Below the pieces are notes generated by a model. That model was not told where the DNA came from. It did not search any database and worked only from the letters and a program-made list of their open reading frames with translations. Both the position numbers and the translations under genes were made by a program. A stretch of 49,176 nucleotides of DNA, from the NCBI GenBank assembly GCA_963748825.1, contig CAVVKN010000024.1, positions 1 to 49,176 of the forward strand, written 5' to 3'. This document shows positions 1 through 14,461 of the stretch, piece by piece. The stretch's first letter is position 1; the number at the start of each line of letters is the position of its first letter. The stretch comes from Methanotrichaceae archaeon (GTDB lineage Archaea > Halobacteriota > Methanosarcinia > Methanotrichales > Methanotrichaceae).

Positions 1-283
1 CCTTGCTTTCCATTAGAGAAGGGTGCACGCCCAGGAATTCTATCCTTTCTTCTGCTCTGCCGTCCATGGGTCCCAGGTCCACGATCATTATGCGGTCTTC
101 GTCATGTTTGATGATCTCTGTAAGTGCCGCAATAAGCTCTACTTTTCCTTTGTCGGTGAGATTGCACCTAAAGACGGAGTAATGTATTGGATCTCCGAAA
201 CCTTTCATGGTTTTGTGCACCTGATGCAGGCGCTTTGGGTCCATTATGTCGTAGCTGACTACGTAGCATTTCAGTTCGCCCAT
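1..283 (-). CDS. cas2: CRISPR-associated endoribonuclease Cas2 (3' end runs off the window)
   Basis: Not in the ORF track. Manual translation gives MGELKCYVVSYDIMDPKRLHQVHKTMKGFGDPIHYSVFRCNLT..., with the Cas2 Y-x-x-x-Y-D-I and (Q/H)YSVF motifs; directly downstream of cas1. Confidence 0.93.
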   Translation of the reverse strand, partial: MGELKCYVVSYDIMDPKRLHQVHKTMKGFGDPIHYSVFRCNLTDKGKVELIAALTEIIKHDEDRIMIVDLGPMDGRAEERIEFLGVHPSLMESK

Positions 284-298
284 TCCTCGTCACACTCG

Positions 299-2016
299 TT
301 ACCTGGTGCAGAAGGGAGGATAATCCCCGATCTCGCCGGAGATGGCTCGCGCCAGGAGGCGGGCCTGCACTTCCAGCACTCTTCGGTAGCTGACTTTGTA
401 GCCGAAGATGGGATGGATGATCTCCGTCTCCATGCGGCGTTCGTAGCCTGCCACTACGGCCTTCTTTCCGTTGGAGGTCAGGGAGACACCGGCATGAGTC
501 TTGATGAAGTCTTTCTTGGAAATCTCCTCATTGTTAAACAGGTTTATGGCCACGGAATCGGCAATGAGGGGGCGGAACTCTTCCATCATATCCAGGGCCA
601 GAGCGGGCCTGCCGTATCTGGGTCGGTGATAAAATCCAAGATAAGGATCAAAGCCCACCGCGAGGAGAGTGACAAACAGGTCTTTGACCAGAATGCCGTA
701 GAGGTAGGATAGAACTGCATTCACAGGATCTTTCGGTGGTCTGCGGTTTCGATCCGTAAATGAGAAGTCCTTGCCGCCTTCTTTCAACAGGTTGGCAAAC
801 CGGGAAAAATAGCATTCCGCTGCCGCTCCTTCAATGCCCAGCAGGCTCTGGCTGCTTGATGCCGCTTGCGCCTCTGCGGCCAGTTTTGCCATCAGGTCCA
901 GGGAGCTTGTGCTGCGCTCGGGATCGTTTCGGCGCATGAGCGTCCGGCAGTTTTTGATCTTGCCGGCTACGGCCTTTCGAGCCAGAAGTATCGATCTTTT
1001 CGGGTCCATGGCACACTGGAACTGATGTATCCTCAGCTCAACGTTTTTATGGGTCGTTCCCAGGCAGATCCCCTGGAACCAGCCTCCGTGTGTGAAGTGG
1101 ATAACGGGCACTCCTCTTTGCATCAGCTCGACCATAGCCGGGGTGGTTATCTCCACGCCTCCGTAGAGCGAGAGCTGAGAGATCTCTCTTAGCTTGGGCT
1201 CACTGACCTTGCCTTCCCGTGACCAGATTTCCAGGCGTTCTTCTTTCTTCCTAACGGTATTGCCATGACCGACTACGTAAACGGGTATGGCGTCATCCCG
1301 AGAGGGAAGCAGCCTTCTGATTCGGCCTGACGTAGCCTCTTTCTCATCCTCATTCGTTCCCTCTGCTTCCTGCTCGCTTCTGCATCAGCAGCTTCCATCT
1401 CTTTGAGGAGGGTGATCTCATCGGGCAGGCAGATGCCGGCCAAAGAGCAGCGGATGCACTTGGGGCTGTGCTGCAAGGGAGGCGGCATCTCTCCCAGATC
1501 CGCCGCGATCCGGAGCGCAGCGATGAGTTCCATGGTTCTGCTCACCAGGGCGTCATCAAAAGGAATGGGCACTCTCTTCTTCGATTTAACAAAGTAGGCG
1601 ATTCCCTCATCGCAGACAAAGCCGTTTTCCCTCAGCACCAGTCCCTGGGCACAGAGCTGAACTCTCTCCGGCTCGTAGGCACCTTCCGGGATATCAGGCG
1701 CTTCTCCTCGTTTGTAGTCCACTGGAGTGACATGGCCGCCTTCGCCCTCCAGAAGGTCGATTCTGCAGGTGATGCCTGCTCCGGAAAGGTAAACCGATCG
1801 AGCATGAAATGTTTCGAACTCCTCGGAGGCTTTGTCAGAGCCGGCATCCACGCGCCTGTGCTGGAATCTGCCATCCACCGTATCTGCGCTGTCCAAGAAT
1901 TCTCCCTGCACCCATTCGATATAGCAGAGGCGAGGGCAGTAGGCAAACTCGTTGAGCATACGGGCGGGAATCAGCTCAGGCAAATCTCTGTTGGGCTCTT
2001 CGGCTTTAGGAATCAC
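299..2016 (-). CDS. cas1: Cas4-Cas1 fusion (type I-G), with one apparent frameshift in the linker at about 1370-1378
   Basis: 1273..2016 is Cas4 (YCPR, GRFQH, RIDL, PVDYKRG, QLCAQ, CxxCSLxxxC). An alternative frame reads EQEAEGTNEDEKEATSGRIRRLLPSRDDAIPVYVVGHG and continues in frame into Cas1 299..1156 (GIEGAAA, RNRRPPKDPVNAVLSYLY, GFYH, LALDMMEEFRP). Confidence 0.92.
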
Positions 2017-2068
2017 ATACTCACCGTAGTAGTAATAGTAGTCATTATTGATAAAGATATTTATTTTC

Positions 2069-2104
2069 TATGACATTAAATTATTAAGTGCGCACCATGT
2101 CATA
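2069..2104. promoter_or_regulatory. Inverted repeat TATGACAT-N20-ATGTCATA in the AT-rich promoter region of cas4-cas1-cas2
   Basis: Perfect 8-bp arms at 2069-2076 and 2097-2104, next to a TATATA tract about 90 nt upstream of the cas4 start. Confidence 0.4.
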
Positions 2105-2305
2105 TATATTATTTTCAGTTTTATGATATAACTATAGACATCCCAGAGGCGAAATAATCTAAAAGGATCGTTTTATTCCAGGCTATTGCCAGCGACAGGT
2201 AATATATCTCCAAGCGAGAGGTAGAACAAGCACCACAAAGAAAGCTCCTGACATCTTGAGGAGGCTTCTGCAAAAACAAATTATAAAAATTAGAAACGGG
2301 ATAAA

Positions 2306-2437
2306 TCACTCAATGCCGCGTTTGGTGCAATACTCATCAAGTGATATATACAGCTCCTTTTCTCTTTGGAGCTTCTTGTATTGCTCATCAGCATAGGCCG
2401 CCAGTACATCCTCTTTTTGAACTTCAACGGTTGCCAT
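2306..2437 (-). CDS. Putative small antitoxin, 43 aa (MATVEVQKEDVLAAYADEQYKKLQREKELYISLDEYCTKRGIE)
   Basis: Below the ORF-track cutoff. AGAGGA RBS then ATG at 2437; starts 28 nt after the RelE-like stop; C-terminal ISLDE...RGI resembles the tails of archaeal RelE-partner antitoxins. Confidence 0.65.
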   Translation of the reverse strand: MATVEVQKEDVLAAYADEQYKKLQREKELYISLDEYCTKRGIE

Positions 2438-2465
2438 TGATCCTCTTTATATCCTCGATTGGTTA

Positions 2466-2747
2466 TTAATTTTTCCTATAGGCCGAATCTCTCTTCTTTG
2501 GAAAGAGATCCGTAACAAATATCGTCTGCTCTTCCACAAAGTACATGGCTCTGAATTCTCCCATCCTCAGCCGGTACATAGGCGGCCTGCCACTGCCGGC
2601 AACGATGTCAATGTCACAGGCAGTTCGCGGCTTGAAGGGGTCTCTCTCCAGCTCCTTAAGATGCTTCTTGATATTCCGGGCCCGCTTATCATCGAGTCCA
2701 TCGAGGTACTTCCCGGCATCTGGAGACAGCATGACTATATACGGCAT
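2466..2747 (-). CDS. RelE/ParE-family type II toxin (93 aa)
   Basis: MPYIVMLSPDAGKYLDGLD...IKKHLKELERDPF...MYRLRMGEFRAMYFV...RDSAY, a typical RelE pattern; GGAGG RBS 3 nt before ATG 2747. Confidence 0.88.
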   Translation of the reverse strand: MPYIVMLSPDAGKYLDGLDDKRARNIKKHLKELERDPFKPRTACDIDIVAGSGRPPMYRLRMGEFRAMYFVEEQTIFVTDLFPKKRDSAYRKN

Positions 2748-2809
2748 TATCCTCCATTCTCCCTTATTCTTCAGCTTCTTGATGTTTTCGGTAATCGTGG
2801 CCTCTGAGT

Positions 2810-5800
2810 GCCTCAATGAGGTCATGATTTTTTAGCCGTGGAAATCACCCCGACCTTCGAGAACTATCTGGATCTGATAGATCAGCTTCAATGGGGCCAC
2901 GACTTTTCAGCCGTGGAAATTACATATCAGGCCGGGACTCCCTCACCGGAACAGAATTGCTTCAATGGGGCCACGACTTTTCAGCCGTGGAAATCGCGTC
3001 ATATCACTCGATTCCTGTTCTGGGCTCTGGCGGCTTCAATGGGGCCACGACTTTTCAGCCGTGGAAATTCTGGACTCTGCGATAATGCCACGGATAGCTC
3101 TGGTCAGTGCTTCAATGGGGCCACGACTTTTCAGCCGTGGAAATAGTACAGAATTTGGGCAACTCCGATCTGTGCCAGAACGTGCTTCAATGGGGCCACG
3201 ACTTTTCAGCCGTGGAAATCTTGACGTACATTGATCTTGCTGCCCAGATCGCCGTGAGCTTCAATGGGGCCACGACTTTTCAGCCGTGGAAATAAGTCAT
3301 AGAATGGACATCTGCGCGCTCTGCATAGACCTGCTTCAATGGGGCCACGACTTTTCAGCCGTGGAAATGTTGATAGTCGTTGGAAGTGCTGAAATCGTAG
3401 ATGCTGAGCTTCAATGGGGCCACGACTTTTCAGCCGTGGAAATTCAGAACTCAGCAGTCCGAGGCTGGCCAGTCCGAGTATCCGCTTCAATGGGGCCACG
3501 ACTTTTCAGCCGTGGAAATACTCCCAGAGGCAGTCAATGAAGCCTGCCCATATGCGCTTCAATGGGGCCACGACTTTTCAGCCGTGGAAATGTATGAGCA
3601 ACTCATGATGTCCATCTAGCTGCAGGCTATGCTTCAATGGGGCCACGACTTTTCAGCCGTGGAAATCCGACGATGACGCGAATCTGCAGACACCTGACGT
3701 TAGTGCTTCAATGGGGCCACGACTTTTCAGCCGTGGAAATATCATGACAGATCGGCCGATGCATTCCGGAGATTGCGGCTTCAATGGGGCCACGACTTTT
3801 CAGCCGTGGAAATTTAATGTCAGATATGCAGCGCGACTGCCTGAGGTATCTGCTTCAATGGGGCCACGACTTTTCAGCCGTGGAAATATCAGGCGTGTGA
3901 GCTTGGCGGACTGGCAGAAGCTGCGCTTCAATGGGGCCACGACTTTTCAGCCGTGGAAATATGCAGCCGATGATCCGTGCACGGCATTGATAGCTCATCG
4001 CTTCAATGGGGCCACGACTTTTCAGCCGTGGAAATTGCAGCCGATGCTCCGATGCCGATGCAACTCGATACTGCTTCAATGGGGCCACGACTTTTCAGCC
4101 GTGGAAATGCCAGTGCCGATGATCCTGCGCCAGACATATCTCGACGATGCTTCAATGGGGCCACGACTTTTCAGCCGTGGAAATATCGAACGGCATGATC
4201 CGACATCAGCGAGCTGAATCAGCTTCAATGGGGCCACGACTTTTCAGCCGTGGAAATCATGCATCGACGAGTATCATGATCGCAGATCTAGTATGCGCTT
4301 CAATGGGGCCACGACTTTTCAGCCGTGGAAATGTCAGATCAGGTAGCTCCGAGCGACGCCTGATCGATATCGCTTCAATGGGGCCACGACTTTTCAGCCG
4401 TGGAAATCGATGCATGATCAATGCATGCACAGCGGTGTCAGGCTATCTGCTTCAATGGGGCCACGACTTTTCAGCCGTGGAAATTCAGAGTGCATGATCG
4501 ATGCACTGAAGCGCATGACTCGGCTTCAATGGGGCCACGACTTTTCAGCCGTGGAAATATTGCGGTCAGCGCTCGGCATCAGCACTTGCCAGTCGTCGCT
4601 TCAATGGGGCCACGACTTTTCAGCCGTGGAAATTATAATCGCTACAGGTCGTAGTCTGCGATCGGTATCAGCGCTTCAATGGGGCCACGACTTTTCAGCC
4701 GTGGAAATTCGAGCATCTGGACATGCGCATGGTCGGCCGATGCATTGGCTTCAATGGGGCCACGACTTTTCAGCCGTGGAAATTTAGAATGGTCAGCATC
4801 GCGAATATGTACGCCTAGCAATCGCTTCAATGGGGCCACGACTTTTCAGCCGTGGAAATCGTACGAGATATCGCAGTCGGTAATCTGGCCAAGCAGTGCT
4901 TCAATGGGGCCACGACTTTTCAGCCGTGGAAATTCTGAGCTGCATCTGTCCGATCCACTGCGGCAATCTCGGGCTTCAATGGGGCCACGACTTTTCAGCC
5001 GTGGAAATTAGACAGCTCGAATGATGCATGCAGTAGCCGTGCAGATAGCTTCAATGGGGCCACGACTTTTCAGCCGTGGAAATCGATCAAGCTCATGATC
5101 TGGCGATACGGAGCTTCAATGGGGCCACGACTTTTCAGCCGTGGAAATCCTGGCATGCAGGAAGCTCCGATGCGCTTCAATGGGGCCACGACTTTTCAGC
5201 CGTGGAAATATCTGATGTGCCTAGCAGGCATTACGATCGTCAGTCACTGCTTCAATGGGGCCACGACTTTTCAGCCGTGGAAATATGATGGTCGCAGCTG
5301 CGACACTTGAATGAGCATCCATGGCTTCAATGGGGCCACGACTTTTCAGCCGTGGAAATGTATCGATGCGAATGACGATACCAGGTCAGCAAGCTCGGCT
5401 TCAATGGGGCCACGACTTTTCAGCCGTGGAAATGATGGACTGCTCAGAGCGACTGCCAGCTCTGATGCTATGCTTCAATGGGGCCACGACTTTTCAGCCG
5501 TGGAAATGTCACATGCTCAGTAGCGGTCGCAGTCGCAGCTAGACAGCTTCAATGGGGCCACGACTTTTCAGCCGTGGAAATTCAGACCTATGAGCAGGCC
5601 GCGATCAGATGCATGCTTCAATGGGGCCACGACTTTTCAGCCGTGGAAATATCATGATCACTGCATGCGACATCGCATGCGATGATGCAGCTTCAATGGG
5701 GCCACGACTTTTCAGCCGTGGAAATTACAGATGCGCGCATGATCAATGGATGCTAGTCATGGCTGCTTCAATGGGGCCACGACTTTTCAGCCGTGGAAAT

Positions 5801-5876
5801 ACTGATCACGCAGATATGCCGTAGCATGGACTTGCAGTATGCTTCAATGGGGCCACGACTTTTCAGCCGTGGAAAT
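2810..5876 (-). CRISPR. CRISPR array: 42 repeats of 36 bp (41 identical plus 1 degenerate terminal copy) and 41 spacers, mostly 36-41 nt
   Basis: + strand repeat GCTTCAATGGGGCCACGACTTTTCAGCCGTGGAAAT. Minus-strand ATTTCCACGGCTGAAAAGTCGTGGCCCCATTGAAGC has a CCACGGCT-GAAA-AGTCGTGG hairpin and an ATTGAAGC 3' end. The degenerate copy at 2810-2845 (6 substitutions) marks the trailer end. Confidence 0.99.
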
Positions 5877-6080
5877 GGCGGCCATTTTTCGCCCTCTGTA
5901 GATATCGAAAAATTGGCCGTTTTCGAGAGGTTCCTCAACTCTCGTGGAGTTTTTTGCAAAGTGCGTCTGTCTTCACGGGAGTTTTCGCTGTTTGGAGGCG
6001 TTTCGAGCGCACCCCGGTCCTCCCGGAACCACATAACCTCTCGAAAAGACCTCTCGCTATTATTATCTTTCGCTTAAATT
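5877..6080 (-). promoter_or_regulatory. CRISPR leader with inverted and direct TTTCGAG motifs and a TATA-like element
   Basis: Adjacent to the last perfect repeat, opposite the degenerate end. TTTTCGAGAGGTT (5920-5932) and AACCTCTCGAAAA (6035-6047) form a perfect inverted pair; TTTCGAGCG at 6001; minus-strand TTTAAG near 6073-6078. Confidence 0.8.
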
Positions 6081-6312
6081 GCAGGAGTCTTCGGCCCCAT
6101 GGAGTGAGGGGACACTTTGCTGCAAAAAAGAATCGCGCTTTGCAGGAGACCATCCGACCCCGGCCCGGCGGCTTTCCCGCAGGCTCACGCGCGCGCGGGC
6201 CCGATCGCCTGGGCAGGCAAGAGGGCCAAGTTAGTCTTGCTGCGGTAATCAAAGCGGCTCTACTGTTAGAAAATGTTACACTGTGGGGCAAAAGAAGTTG
6301 ATTAAACAGCCA

Positions 6313-6526
6313 TCAAGCCGTACCGGCTACAAGGCTGCGTTTCTGCGGGAGGGGAATGTCTCTGCCGATTTCCTTTGCTGTTTCCAGCCAGAGCTGCATG
6401 GCAATTTTGACCTCATTTAGTGCTCGCTCTTCGTTTTCTCCAAAGGCAGAGCAGCCAGGCAGTCTCTGGGACTGTGGCGATAAAACCCTCATCCTCTTCG
6501 CTGTAAGAGATCTCAATTGCGTACAT
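6313..6526 (-). CDS. hicB: HicB-family antitoxin (short, RNase H-like fold only), one apparent +1 frameshift at about 6465
   Basis: Joined frames give MYAIEISYSEEDEGFIATVPE/LPGCSAFGENEERALNEVKIAMQLWLETAKEIGRDIPLP, the classic HicB signature; GGAGG RBS. Confidence 0.88.
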
Positions 6527-6640
6527 CAATCCTCCATTGACGGTCAATGTTTCAGAATGCAGCTTTATAAACTGTTTGACCTGATAGCCGATATTTGCCC
6601 ATTCCAACCTTCATTCTGATAAGTTCAGAGATCTCCCTAT
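6527..6640 (-). pseudogene. hicA: Remnant of the C-terminus of a HicA toxin
   Basis: Broken frames read EISELI...YQVKQFIKL, matching the HicA C-terminal helix, directly upstream of hicB. No N-terminal half or G-S-H motif is recognisable. Confidence 0.55.
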
Positions 6641-6789
6641 TCAAGATCAGCTTGCGCTAACTGCAGGCATCTTACTGTCTGGCTGCAGTATCCCGCGGGC
6701 CACGCGCGGGCCGGCGCGGGCAGGCCGGAGGGCCCCGGACGGTGGGGGCGCTCCAGCGGGCTGCCGGGCGAGGACGGCGATGGGGGCGG

Positions 6790-9400
<2,611 letters not shown>

Positions 9401-11628
9401 TCATTCCTGGACGACTCTCGGCCTCAGAACACTGCTTGCTAAATGCTCGATCTGACTCTCACCAATGGAAAATAGCAGTGCTGCTGCAATTCTTTTCATT
9501 AAATTAGATGAAATATTAGTGCTAATCTTAGCCGCAGGGAGATTGCTCCCTCTCAGACGCCTCTCTGCTAACTGCAGCGAACCAAAACCATCACCAATGG
9601 CGGCTCTCCTGTGTATTTGCGGCACAAGTGGGACCGTCGCATCGCATACAGGTCCGCCTGCAAAGCAGAGCTTGAGAAGCGCATAGCTGGCAGATGGGAA
9701 TATGGTATCCGATTCGAATTGCCTTTTTATAAAATTCCTGGATACAGAAGGCCAGTCTACTAAAATCAAACCCCAGAGAAGATCCATCATTCGGTTTAAA
9801 TTGACTCGATCTTCAATAAGTGCTGCAATATCCCCAAGATCTGCTTTAATTTTAGCATCATCGGGATAGCTATTTGCTCCGGAGCGAACCGCCATCATGA
9901 TTCGGCGTGAAATTATATCGTTCATTACGGAGATGGGATCTCCTTCAGACCAGACGACATCTCTTCCCAACGTCTCATCAAATGAGTTAGCATTCCAGTG
10001 ATTGATCGGCTCCATTTGAGAGCGCAGCCACATGGTAAACTCGCGTCCCTCCTGGTCTTTGTAACGGCCAAAGGTAGAAGCAAGACTTGCCGCCAGGAAA
10101 AATTCAGGGGATTGATCATTTGCCATTGTCAGCCAATTTTTTGAAAGAGGACTTACCGGCTTAACGAAAGCCTCTTTTGCCCAGCGAGAACTTCGGACGA
10201 TGGCTTTTTCGCACTCTCCGAGGGCGATCAATACATCCTGCACCCGCCATGCTTGAACCTGATCATTGCTGCTCTCTTTGCAGAGGGCCAAAATGGACGA
10301 TTCAAGAACGTGCAGAGCGCGTCCAACAGATGCAGGCGCTTTCTCTGATCGAGCTTTGTCGTGGAATGAATCGAGCCAGCTATCCACATCGTTCAATAGC
10401 TCCACCTGGATCTGGCGGCTCACCATGATCCGCTCAAGGGGGACTGAGAAGAAGTTTTTGCCATTTCTTTCCAGAAATCCATATCTTTGGAACGATTTTA
10501 ATCCCCGATCAACTCCAAGAGAGGCAACTGCTCTGGCAAAATCTACTCCATTTCTGGCCGGCCTGGTTCCCACCTGAGCACGCCCTTCACTCATGAGGGC
10601 TCTTGAGTTCAGATAATCCCGTGGGCTTCTCCCAGAGGGGCATCCAGATCTCTGCTCTTGCGCTTTTCTCATCGCTCTCAGAAGCGCTGCCGTATCCTAC
10701 ACCCGAGGGGCGAACGCTGAACGGATAGCTCAGAACGCCTGGCATATTTGCTTGCAGCCGCTTGACTGTGGCAGACGCGAAAAATAATGCGCCCTCAATC
10801 ATGAGTATGTAATCCCAGGGATTTACCGGCGAGTCCGAGACAAATCCCGGTGCAGAATTGGGACCGCCTACAGCACCCGGATAAAATTGGCCGATAGAAA
10901 TTCCGTTGACCAAGCCATCAGAGTTTTCAGCAAACAGCGCCCCGTCAAGCCATGCCCTCGATTGTGCTTTCGAATTTCCATCACTAAATTCGAAGATATC
11001 TTTGAGCCGTTGCATGAAATTGCTGCTGAAATCCAAATTTCCATCGTTTCCACCTGTTCCCAGGAGCGGAGGAAATCTTGGCATTCTCAGTTGTCAAAAT
11101 CACGGATGCATCAAGCCAGTCTATTGCTGAATCAGGAAGACTGTTTCGCACTGCCTGGATAAGCTCCTCTTTTTCCTCTTTGGAGGGAGCTTCTTCCAGT
11201 CCCATCTTTTTGACCAGGTTCTTGGTGATCTGGAGAGACTTGCGATAAGCTGAAAGTCTCGTCTGCAGTTGATTCTAAAATGTCCTGAACAGCTTTTGTT
11301 GCCGCGGTCTGCTGAGTCCTGCGCCCCGTCTTCTTTTTTTTCCCTGTCAGTGGGTCCTTTTCCTTGAGCTTCTCTTCCTGAAAGTAAAATCCGCTGCCTC
11401 CATTCCACGGAGCCACGATCGGCGTCGGACTGTATTTCTCCAAAAAGAATGTCCTCAGAGATTCGCTATCCATTGTAGTTTTGAGCCGGAAAGAATCGCC
11501 TATCCAGTATCCTTTGGCACCCGGATCAACCTGCTCGGCTACAATCCTGAAGATCCCCAACGCCTTCAGATAGTGGGCGAGCGGCACAGGTGCACAGCCT
11601 TTGAGATTCAGGTCGTTTGATTCAGCGC

Positions 11629-11632
<4 letters not shown>
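9401..11632 (-). CDS. csx17: Type I-G large subunit Cas8g (Csx17/Cas8u1), 3 apparent frameshifts (about 11260, 11080, 10597)
   Basis: LKGCAPVPLAHYLKALG, YSPTPIVAPWNGGSGF, PLLGTGGNDGNLDFSSNFMQ, GQFYPG, VNPWDYILMIEGAL, EIWMPLW, LGVDRG..FQRYGFLERNG. Confidence 0.9.
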
Positions 11633-14209
<2,577 letters not shown>

Positions 14210-14461
14210 ATGCCTGGCCTCCGCCTGGGAGCTTTGCGCGGCAGCTCTTCGCCCCTGCAAAGTCAGAAGCAAAAGTACATCATCGGAGATAAATGTATTC
14301 TGAGCGGGACGAAACTAATCCATTATTTGTGTTCTTTGCGTGAAAACCGTAAATCCACTGGTTAGCCTGATGGTAGATCCATGCAGCAAAAAAAATTGGC
14401 TCTTCGCTATTTCCAGTTGCTAACCTCAGGTTACTATGTATTTCCAGTTGTTAGTTAGTCG

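Follow-up and report, generated by a model that had tools for sequence, protein, structure and literature searches.

The DNA considered here, referred to as the window, is a stretch of 49,176 nt from a Methanotrichaceae archaeon (contig CAVVKN010000024.1), and its first 14 kb are a type I-G CRISPR-Cas locus (CRISPR: clustered short palindromic repeats, regularly interspaced) on the minus strand; all positions are window coordinates. Behind the leader-distal end of the CRISPR array lie a relE-type toxin gene and a gene for a partner of 43 amino acids (aa). We consider it likely that this pair belongs to a mobile type II toxin-antitoxin (TA) cassette common in Methanothrix, and that the copy found here is truncated at its 5' side and sits in a permissive site; a designed coupling to the CRISPR system is not supported. 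The junction between array and cassette is made up as follows:

2466..2747, minus strand: relE-type toxin gene, 93 aa plus stop (MPYIVML...AYRKN)
2306..2437, minus strand: gene for the 43-aa acidic antitoxin, without a DNA-binding domain
2748..2809, minus strand: gap of 62 nt that separates the terminal repeat from the relE ATG
2810..2845, minus strand: degenerate terminal (leader-distal) repeat, 6 of 36 positions altered, hairpin gone

Sequence and predicted fold both identify the toxin as an archaeal RelE. Its longest open reading frame (ORF) has 119 aa (2825..2466), and the start was set at the ATG at 2747 because the orthologues start MPF or MPY. The protein passes the Pfam family Gp49 (PF05973; 25.1 bits against a cut-off of 23.9) and lies below the cut-off of ParE_toxin (PF05016; 20.8 bits against 23), a family matched by 30 of the 32 aligned toxin relatives (E <= 0.001). 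The best sequence match in the PDB, with E 4e-4 over residues 2-90, is the aRelE toxin of Pyrococcus horikoshii (1wmi_A), and the same chain is the top Foldseek match of the AlphaFold2 model (template modelling scores 0.78/0.82, 30% identity), the first six matches all being RelE toxins. That model (predicted local distance difference test, pLDDT, 83.7) has a strand at residues 4-7, helices at 9-17 and 20-33 and then four strands, so that the strand, two helices and antiparallel sheet of the RelE fold are present in the predicted structure. R41, R59, R66, R86 and Y90 align with R40, R58, R65, R85 and Y89 of aRelE, residues that are reportedly held to be functionally important in the structure paper of 2005; across the 32 toxin relatives R59 and R66 never vary and R41 and Y90 hardly do, and the window's toxin keeps all family-invariant residues. 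From family knowledge we take archaeal RelE to be a ribosome-dependent mRNA endonuclease, an activity that is a prediction for the toxin described here.

The antitoxin ORF begins 28 nt past the toxin stop, and both genes carry GGAGG/AGAGGA motifs ahead of their starts. The 43-aa protein matched no family in Pfam, NCBIfam or PADLOC; its 36 database homologues are all unnamed, and the longer forms among them are artefacts of upstream starts. DUF6290 and RelB3_C, the nearest named Protein Atlas clusters, scored below 0.8 and are leads only; the other clusters were unnamed. The ratio of non-synonymous to synonymous substitution rates (dN/dS) was 0.05-0.12 for the toxin against four orthologues and lay in the same range for the antitoxin against its orthologues; purifying selection acts on the 43-aa protein, a partner that is conserved. 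A homologous small ORF stands behind the toxin in 26 of the 29 loci fetched first, and a small ORF lies directly downstream of 67 of 69 distinct toxins, a few of which may be wrong-frame calls. All relatives share the toxin-first order and an acidic partner of 42-65 aa with a C-terminal motif like EKxxYISLDEYxxxRGI. None of 30 antitoxin relatives matches a DNA-binding Pfam family, and profile searches found neither a helix-turn-helix (HTH) nor a ribbon-helix-helix (RHH) domain in the 43-aa protein, as an earlier note made from this DNA alone had observed together with the toxin-first order. Both features are traits of the whole family and not an adaptation to CRISPR.

A model of the complex supports the 43-aa protein as the cognate antitoxin that binds the toxin. 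The predicted complex scored 0.78 against 0.05 for the best control; the mark set for this score is attained by 58 of 80 solved complexes and by 2 of 110 mismatched pairs, and RelE-RelB complexes have been solved already, so the pass may partly reflect likeness to known structures. Contacts agreed between runs by at least 94%, and the pLDDT of the partner was at least 79. In the model a strand of the antitoxin (residues 29-33) pairs with the first strand of the toxin (residues 4-9), the toxin helices are covered and antitoxin residues 9-43 all lie inside the interface. As in a canonical type II system, an adjacent cognate antitoxin is thus predicted in silico to bind its toxin; the DNA-binding, autoregulating antitoxin of such systems appears, from sequence, to be missing. 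We conclude that the pair is a genuine RelE toxin-antitoxin cassette and probably an active one.

A remnant of what the cassette has lost lies in the gap ahead of the toxin. The earlier note placed the RelE-like gene 63 nt past the terminal repeat on the strand of the array; strand and position stand, and the distance is corrected to 62 nt. The gap holds GGAGG 3 nt before the relE ATG and, at 2757-2807 and abutting the terminal repeat, the remnant '...SEATITENIKKLKNKGE'. It derives from the C-terminal helix encoded by an upstream regulator gene, whose last 17-26 codons are fused in frame to relE. The remnant matches the C-termini of upstream ORFs in the family loci L085, L080, L100, L093 and L019, and comparable regulator stumps occur in L019, L093 and L100. 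At some family loci a third gene ends 5-11 nt ahead of relE. The one in L085 (3319-3792, minus strand) is an intact ORF of 157 aa that ends 5 nt before relE and encodes a protein whose N-terminus is RHH-like and whose C-terminus weakly resembles a winged helix, joined by a Lys/Pro-rich linker; L080 has an intact upstream gene similar to it. Matches of these two upstream ORFs to MarR and HTH_24 (E 0.004-0.06) were below the cut-offs. In such fuller relatives the upstream gene probably supplies the regulation, to judge from its sequence. The window's operon contains no intact regulator gene; only the last codons of the upstream gene remain and the window cassette is therefore 5'-truncated.

That the cassette is mobile is suggested by its distribution. 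Our survey of the toxin family covered 105 Methanotrichaceae genomes, 66 of which contain it, and the resulting 126 rows correspond to 124 distinct places, all examined together with their flanks, 1.5 kb or more to either side as far as the contigs reached. The closest orthologues have 68-87% protein identity to the toxin, and their DNA homology with the window is confined to the cassette (2306-2757, or to 2794 for L019). Their surroundings differ: the chorismate synthase gene (aroC) precedes some, others adjoin parA or vapC, and further settings occur. Direct duplications of 166-397 bp bracket cassette copies elsewhere. No CRISPR array was found within 1.5 kb at any of the nine closest orthologue loci, and no array or cas match within 3 kb at any of nine loci from the species collection; an apparent array in L095 was discarded as a coding tandem repeat. 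The closest orthologue cassettes L142 and L144 (also L013, L015 and L021) come after chorismate synthase and have direct duplications (166-397 bp) of the 3' end of that gene on either side, an arrangement that looks like single-crossover insertion of circular DNA. GC-rich repeated elements of ~90-250 bp flank some cassettes (L146 and L147 in G090), and similar GC-rich islands occur close to the window's leader (about 6150-6260 and 6700-6790).

The comparison was also made from the side of the CRISPR locus. Orthologous I-G loci were found with cas8g1 DNA in five other genomes at 78-93% identity. The one of these with a visible array end is that of G073 (L138, G073:C59:53000-57923), where csb2 and the leader are followed by four repeats, AT-rich DNA of 130 nt and a cas4 remnant, and the TA pair is absent. 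The four repeats of that locus are slightly degenerate, the cas4 remnant has 52 codons and the adaptation genes have apparently been lost. G040 has csb2, cas4, cas1, cas2 and an array, with no TA pair in the examined stretch, its contig ending inside the array; in G051 and G088 the contig ends ahead of the array tail. G088 also shows an isolated repeat (3 mismatches) and a second leader-like stretch ~1.3 kb upstream of its main array (L139, G088:C25, 2846-4193), which suggests an insertion on the leader side. The linkage of cassette and array is not conserved, and the pair in the window does not belong to a conserved CRISPR-coupled module.

More distant members of the family do occur in other CRISPR loci. 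The survey of the family places 5 of the 124 copies within 200 nt of an array repeat, three in sense with the array and two antisense, which does not bear out a conserved linkage. The sense copies are those of the window, G003:C18 and G089:C69. In G003:C18 the cassette lies 187 nt past the last degenerate repeat and is nested with HicB-like and MqsA-like genes before a further degenerate repeat, and in G089:C69 it lies 26 nt past the last repeat with a 5'-truncated, frameshifted toxin pseudogene. Of the antisense copies, that of G055:C9 is nested between degenerate repeats, and that of G089:C30 has the last perfect repeat on one side and a degenerate repeat on the other. A further copy, in G036:C28, stands ~1.07 kb away on the leader side of an array, and genes between degenerate trailer repeats are also found in L041, L051 and L100. 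A uniform spread of the family over the genome would give ~0.35 places at array tails, and a spread over non-coding DNA only would give about 2-3, a rough estimate based on the arrays of the window's genome (G000; about 6.7 kb) and on an assumed non-coding fraction. In addition, a separate RelE paralogue (98 aa) with a 52-aa partner occupies one fixed spot in nine genomes including the window's (L050 = G000:C12:123500-131800; L042-L049), in the order cas1-cas2-[cas4 5' fragment]-relE-partner-cas2'-cas4 and flanked by a direct duplication of 390 bp with 94% identity.

One explanation for these placements is that CRISPR repeats are recombination sites that capture TA cassettes and exchange them, and that the cassettes shield the leader-distal array end or the adaptation genes from deletion, much as TA cassettes are said to stabilise chromosomal integrons. 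The nesting of the cassette between trailer repeats in G003:C18, G055:C9 and G089:C30 would fit this model, as would the duplications of 166-397 bp, the mark of a single-crossover insertion, and the retention of one paralogue at the same spot of the adaptation module in nine genomes. We nevertheless regard it as unlikely. An enrichment over a non-coding background is no more than possible on the rough estimate given above, and no repeat remnant was found downstream of the window's cassette, where the best match in 2021-2310 has 21 mismatches and shuffled sequences give 14-21. A more far-reaching version, in which the pair is made only as the tail of the CRISPR RNA precursor (pre-crRNA), its supply of toxin and antitoxin following the activity of the leader, and Methanothrix repeats act like integron attachment sites that take up RelE cassettes and swap them by recombination, the cassettes guarding array ends and adaptation genes against deletion, seems doubtful to us.

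How the truncated pair might be transcribed depends on the surrounding locus, of which the other parts are:

2885..5876, minus strand: CRISPR array, 41 identical repeats of 36 nt
2846..2884, minus strand: oldest (last) spacer
5877..6159, minus strand: CRISPR leader, with 81% and 80% DNA identity to the stretch from csb2 to the first repeat in G073 and G088
2272..2289, minus strand: two runs of five T (2289 and 2276), 17-34 nt past the antitoxin stop, a possible archaeal terminator
6637..14272, minus strand: type I-G effector genes csb2, cas7g, cas8g1 and cas3g
2016..1273, minus strand: cas4
1156..299, minus strand: cas1
283..2, minus strand: cas2

Along the minus strand the order is cas3g, cas8g1/csx17, cas7g/csb1, csb2, a HicB-like ORF, leader, array, degenerate repeat, relE, the 43-aa gene, AT-rich DNA and then cas4, cas1 and cas2. 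The degenerate repeat keeps the correct 75-nt register, bringing the array to 42 repeats in total. That the array is read from the minus strand has four grounds: the 3' end of the repeat, ATTGAAGC, which we take to be the repeat 3'-handle motif; the degenerate repeat at the low-coordinate end; the homology of the leader; and minus-strand matches to Rfam CRISPR-DR16, which are weak (24 bits against a gathering score of 35). The other CRISPR locus of this genome (G000:C12:111790-118905) has two arrays with the same repeat, of 9 and 43 units, ~3.4 kb apart.

With TTTATATA assumed as the TATA consensus octamer, no octamer in the 150 nt upstream of the relE ATG matched at more than 5/8 positions. 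This agrees with the earlier note, which had seen no TATA box in the gap, and is weak evidence: the scan does not discriminate, as most of the 62 family loci scanned likewise lack a 7/8 match. Two close orthologues have TTTATATG 35 nt upstream of the ATG. From 2900 to the antitoxin stop the minus strand has no run of five or more T, and the two T runs beyond that stop are weak as evidence for a terminator, runs of five and six T also occurring inside the leader. The terminal repeat folds at -3.5 kcal/mol without a stem, against -12.5 kcal/mol for the consensus repeat; it no longer folds and a cut of the Cas6 type would therefore be unlikely there. One metatranscriptome run (X1) contained 0.07 of the sampled words, and its contigs, 90-95% alike, covered cas1, cas4 and repeats with other spacers of relatives and not 2377-2871, which is uninformative either way. 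Since the regulator and promoter part upstream has been lost, read-through from the array is a plausible and the simplest source of a transcript. If there is a transcript of the pair, it most likely forms the 3' tail of the pre-crRNA or starts at a cryptic promoter, a statement for which we see the chances as about evenly balanced.

Another possibility is that the pair, cut off from promoter and regulator, is a silent relic that is unexpressed and decaying. It would explain the 5' truncation and the absence of a promoter-like octamer upstream, and it has parallels in the frameshifts of the neighbouring cas and HicB-like genes and in the array-tail copy G089:C69, which is already a pseudogene. 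The state of the genes themselves argues otherwise: both frames are intact with every family-invariant residue kept, GGAGG/AGAGGA motifs precede both starts and no terminator-like T run separates them from the array. We therefore think a silent relic quite unlikely.

The same surroundings bear on the proposal of the earlier note that the pair is a CRISPR-coupled addiction or abortive-infection module, that is, a by-design protein safeguard or output of the I-G system in which the toxin follows array transcription and Csb2 processing. The assignment to type I-G is borne out, as NCBIfam profiles of four effector families match Csb2, Csb1/Cas7g, Cas8g1/Csx17 and Cas3g. Of these genes, cas8g1 lies in three frames and cas3g in four, where three relatives have single cas8g1 ORFs of 746-779 aa; Csb2 is matched over profile positions 259-492 only and csb2 is probably split too; and the effector genes hold at least 10 single-base indels unique to the window, mostly insertions at non-homopolymer sites. 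In the adaptation module cas4 and cas1 do not share a frame, no start codon is present at the Cas1 N-terminus, and cas4/cas1 are likewise split by single-base indels. The other long genes of the window are intact. The frameshifts may be either real decay or a local assembly error in a stretch that varies between strains. If the decay of the effectors is real, the TA pair has not safeguarded them. The HicB-like ORF between csb2 and the leader (about 6540..6310, minus strand) is frameshifted as well; an intact homologue of 69 aa (PF15919, E 5.9e-8) is found inside the array-nested cassette of G003 (L051 4514-4723).

Several points do speak for a safeguard. The pair is on the strand of the array, 62 nt past the terminal repeat with no run of five T between; the hairpin-less terminal repeat may escape cutting, in which case the mRNA and the last crRNA unit would remain linked; the part with regulator and promoter that lay upstream is gone; the family has two further same-strand copies at array tails; and Cas13a-HicAB provides a precedent for a protein TA system tied to CRISPR, as described in PMC13448076. 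Against these, the linkage is missing from all nine closest orthologues and from the orthologous locus of G073, two of the five array-tail copies are antisense to the array, one of the same-strand copies (G089:C69) has a dead toxin, and the domain-less antitoxin and toxin-first order, as shown above, belong to the family. Taken with the frameshifted effectors, these findings make a designed safeguard very unlikely, and the claim of the earlier note is not upheld on this point.

We propose instead that a mobile RelE cassette landed between the old end of the I-G array and cas4-cas1-cas2. The array tail would be a position where such cassettes can land and persist, and candidate reasons are its non-essential DNA, the abundance of direct repeats that could serve recombination and the setting in a defence island; TA modules gather in defence islands and beside CRISPR loci. 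With loss of the upstream part, the transcript of the pair would have come to depend on the pre-crRNA tail or on a cryptic promoter. The pair might also, as a by-product, put a cost on any deletion that takes out the junction of array and cas4. Some observations weigh against this account. The co-directionality with the array, the lack of a recognisable promoter and the intact genes would fit a real dependence on array transcription. The five array-tail copies among 124 and the nine paralogue copies inside the adaptation operon may also exceed chance, with the reservation that kin genomes are non-independent samples, and room is left for some selected benefit of residing in CRISPR loci.

The finding is mainly one more example of a TA system beside a CRISPR locus. 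It does document a large, unannotated archaeal RelE family in which the toxin comes first, the antitoxin of 42-65 aa falls into none of the named families and the unit probably includes a separate upstream regulator. The repeated occurrence of the family at array tails and within an adaptation operon, flanked by direct repeats in each case, provides a concrete system for how cassettes enter CRISPR loci, and with the truncated copy in the window nature offers a test of whether read-through of a pre-crRNA can sustain a protein TA pair. A literature search within the limited library covered found no paper on a RelE pair at the tail of a pre-crRNA, and the accessible part of one review (PMC12737573) had no passage on RelE downstream of arrays for the terms looked up.

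Among known systems, aRelE-aRelB of P. horikoshii (PDB 1WMI) is the best match of the toxin in both sequence and fold. Its gene order is antitoxin first. The 43-aa partner differs from aRelB in being shorter, in lying downstream of its toxin and in being unrelated to any named family. The two antitoxins are alike in one respect, as the DNA-binding fold of aRelB is listed as 'unknown' in PMC4803016, which resembles the domain-less partner described here. The same source describes systems in which a separate regulator accompanies an antitoxin that only neutralises, namely paaR2-paaA2-parE2 of Escherichia coli O157:H7 and omega-epsilon-zeta (PMC4803016). The likeness to such three-component ParE/RelE systems lies in the separate regulator gene upstream of the toxin in the fuller relatives L085 and L080; the differences are the order regulator, toxin, antitoxin, the putative nature of the regulator (sub-threshold Pfam matches) and its reduction to a remnant in the window.

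Protein and RNA toxins have been tied to CRISPR loci elsewhere. Cas13a-HicAB 'CCTA' loci are described as hicA-CRISPR-hicB, a protein TA system tied to CRISPR (PMC13448076), and Clostridioides difficile as carrying type I TA pairs beside its arrays (PMC5961336). Both linkages recur across strains and have experimental support, whereas that in the window is present in one genome among the orthologues. CreTA (type VIII) is an addiction element in a type I CRISPR-Cas locus beside degenerate repeats (PMC9458426). Its toxin is an RNA, and its antitoxin resembles a crRNA and directs Cascade to the promoter of the toxin, whereas the pair in the window is two proteins. A CreTA-like pairing was looked for with the trailer spacer, which has no match of at least 9 nt elsewhere in window positions 1-8000 and chance-level matches only elsewhere in the genome; a CRISPR-regulated TA system of this kind is ruled out by the protein partners, the absent spacer-promoter match and the unconserved linkage. 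If, on the other hand, the truncated pair does depend on read-through from the array, it would be a protein counterpart of the RNA-based CreTA idea.

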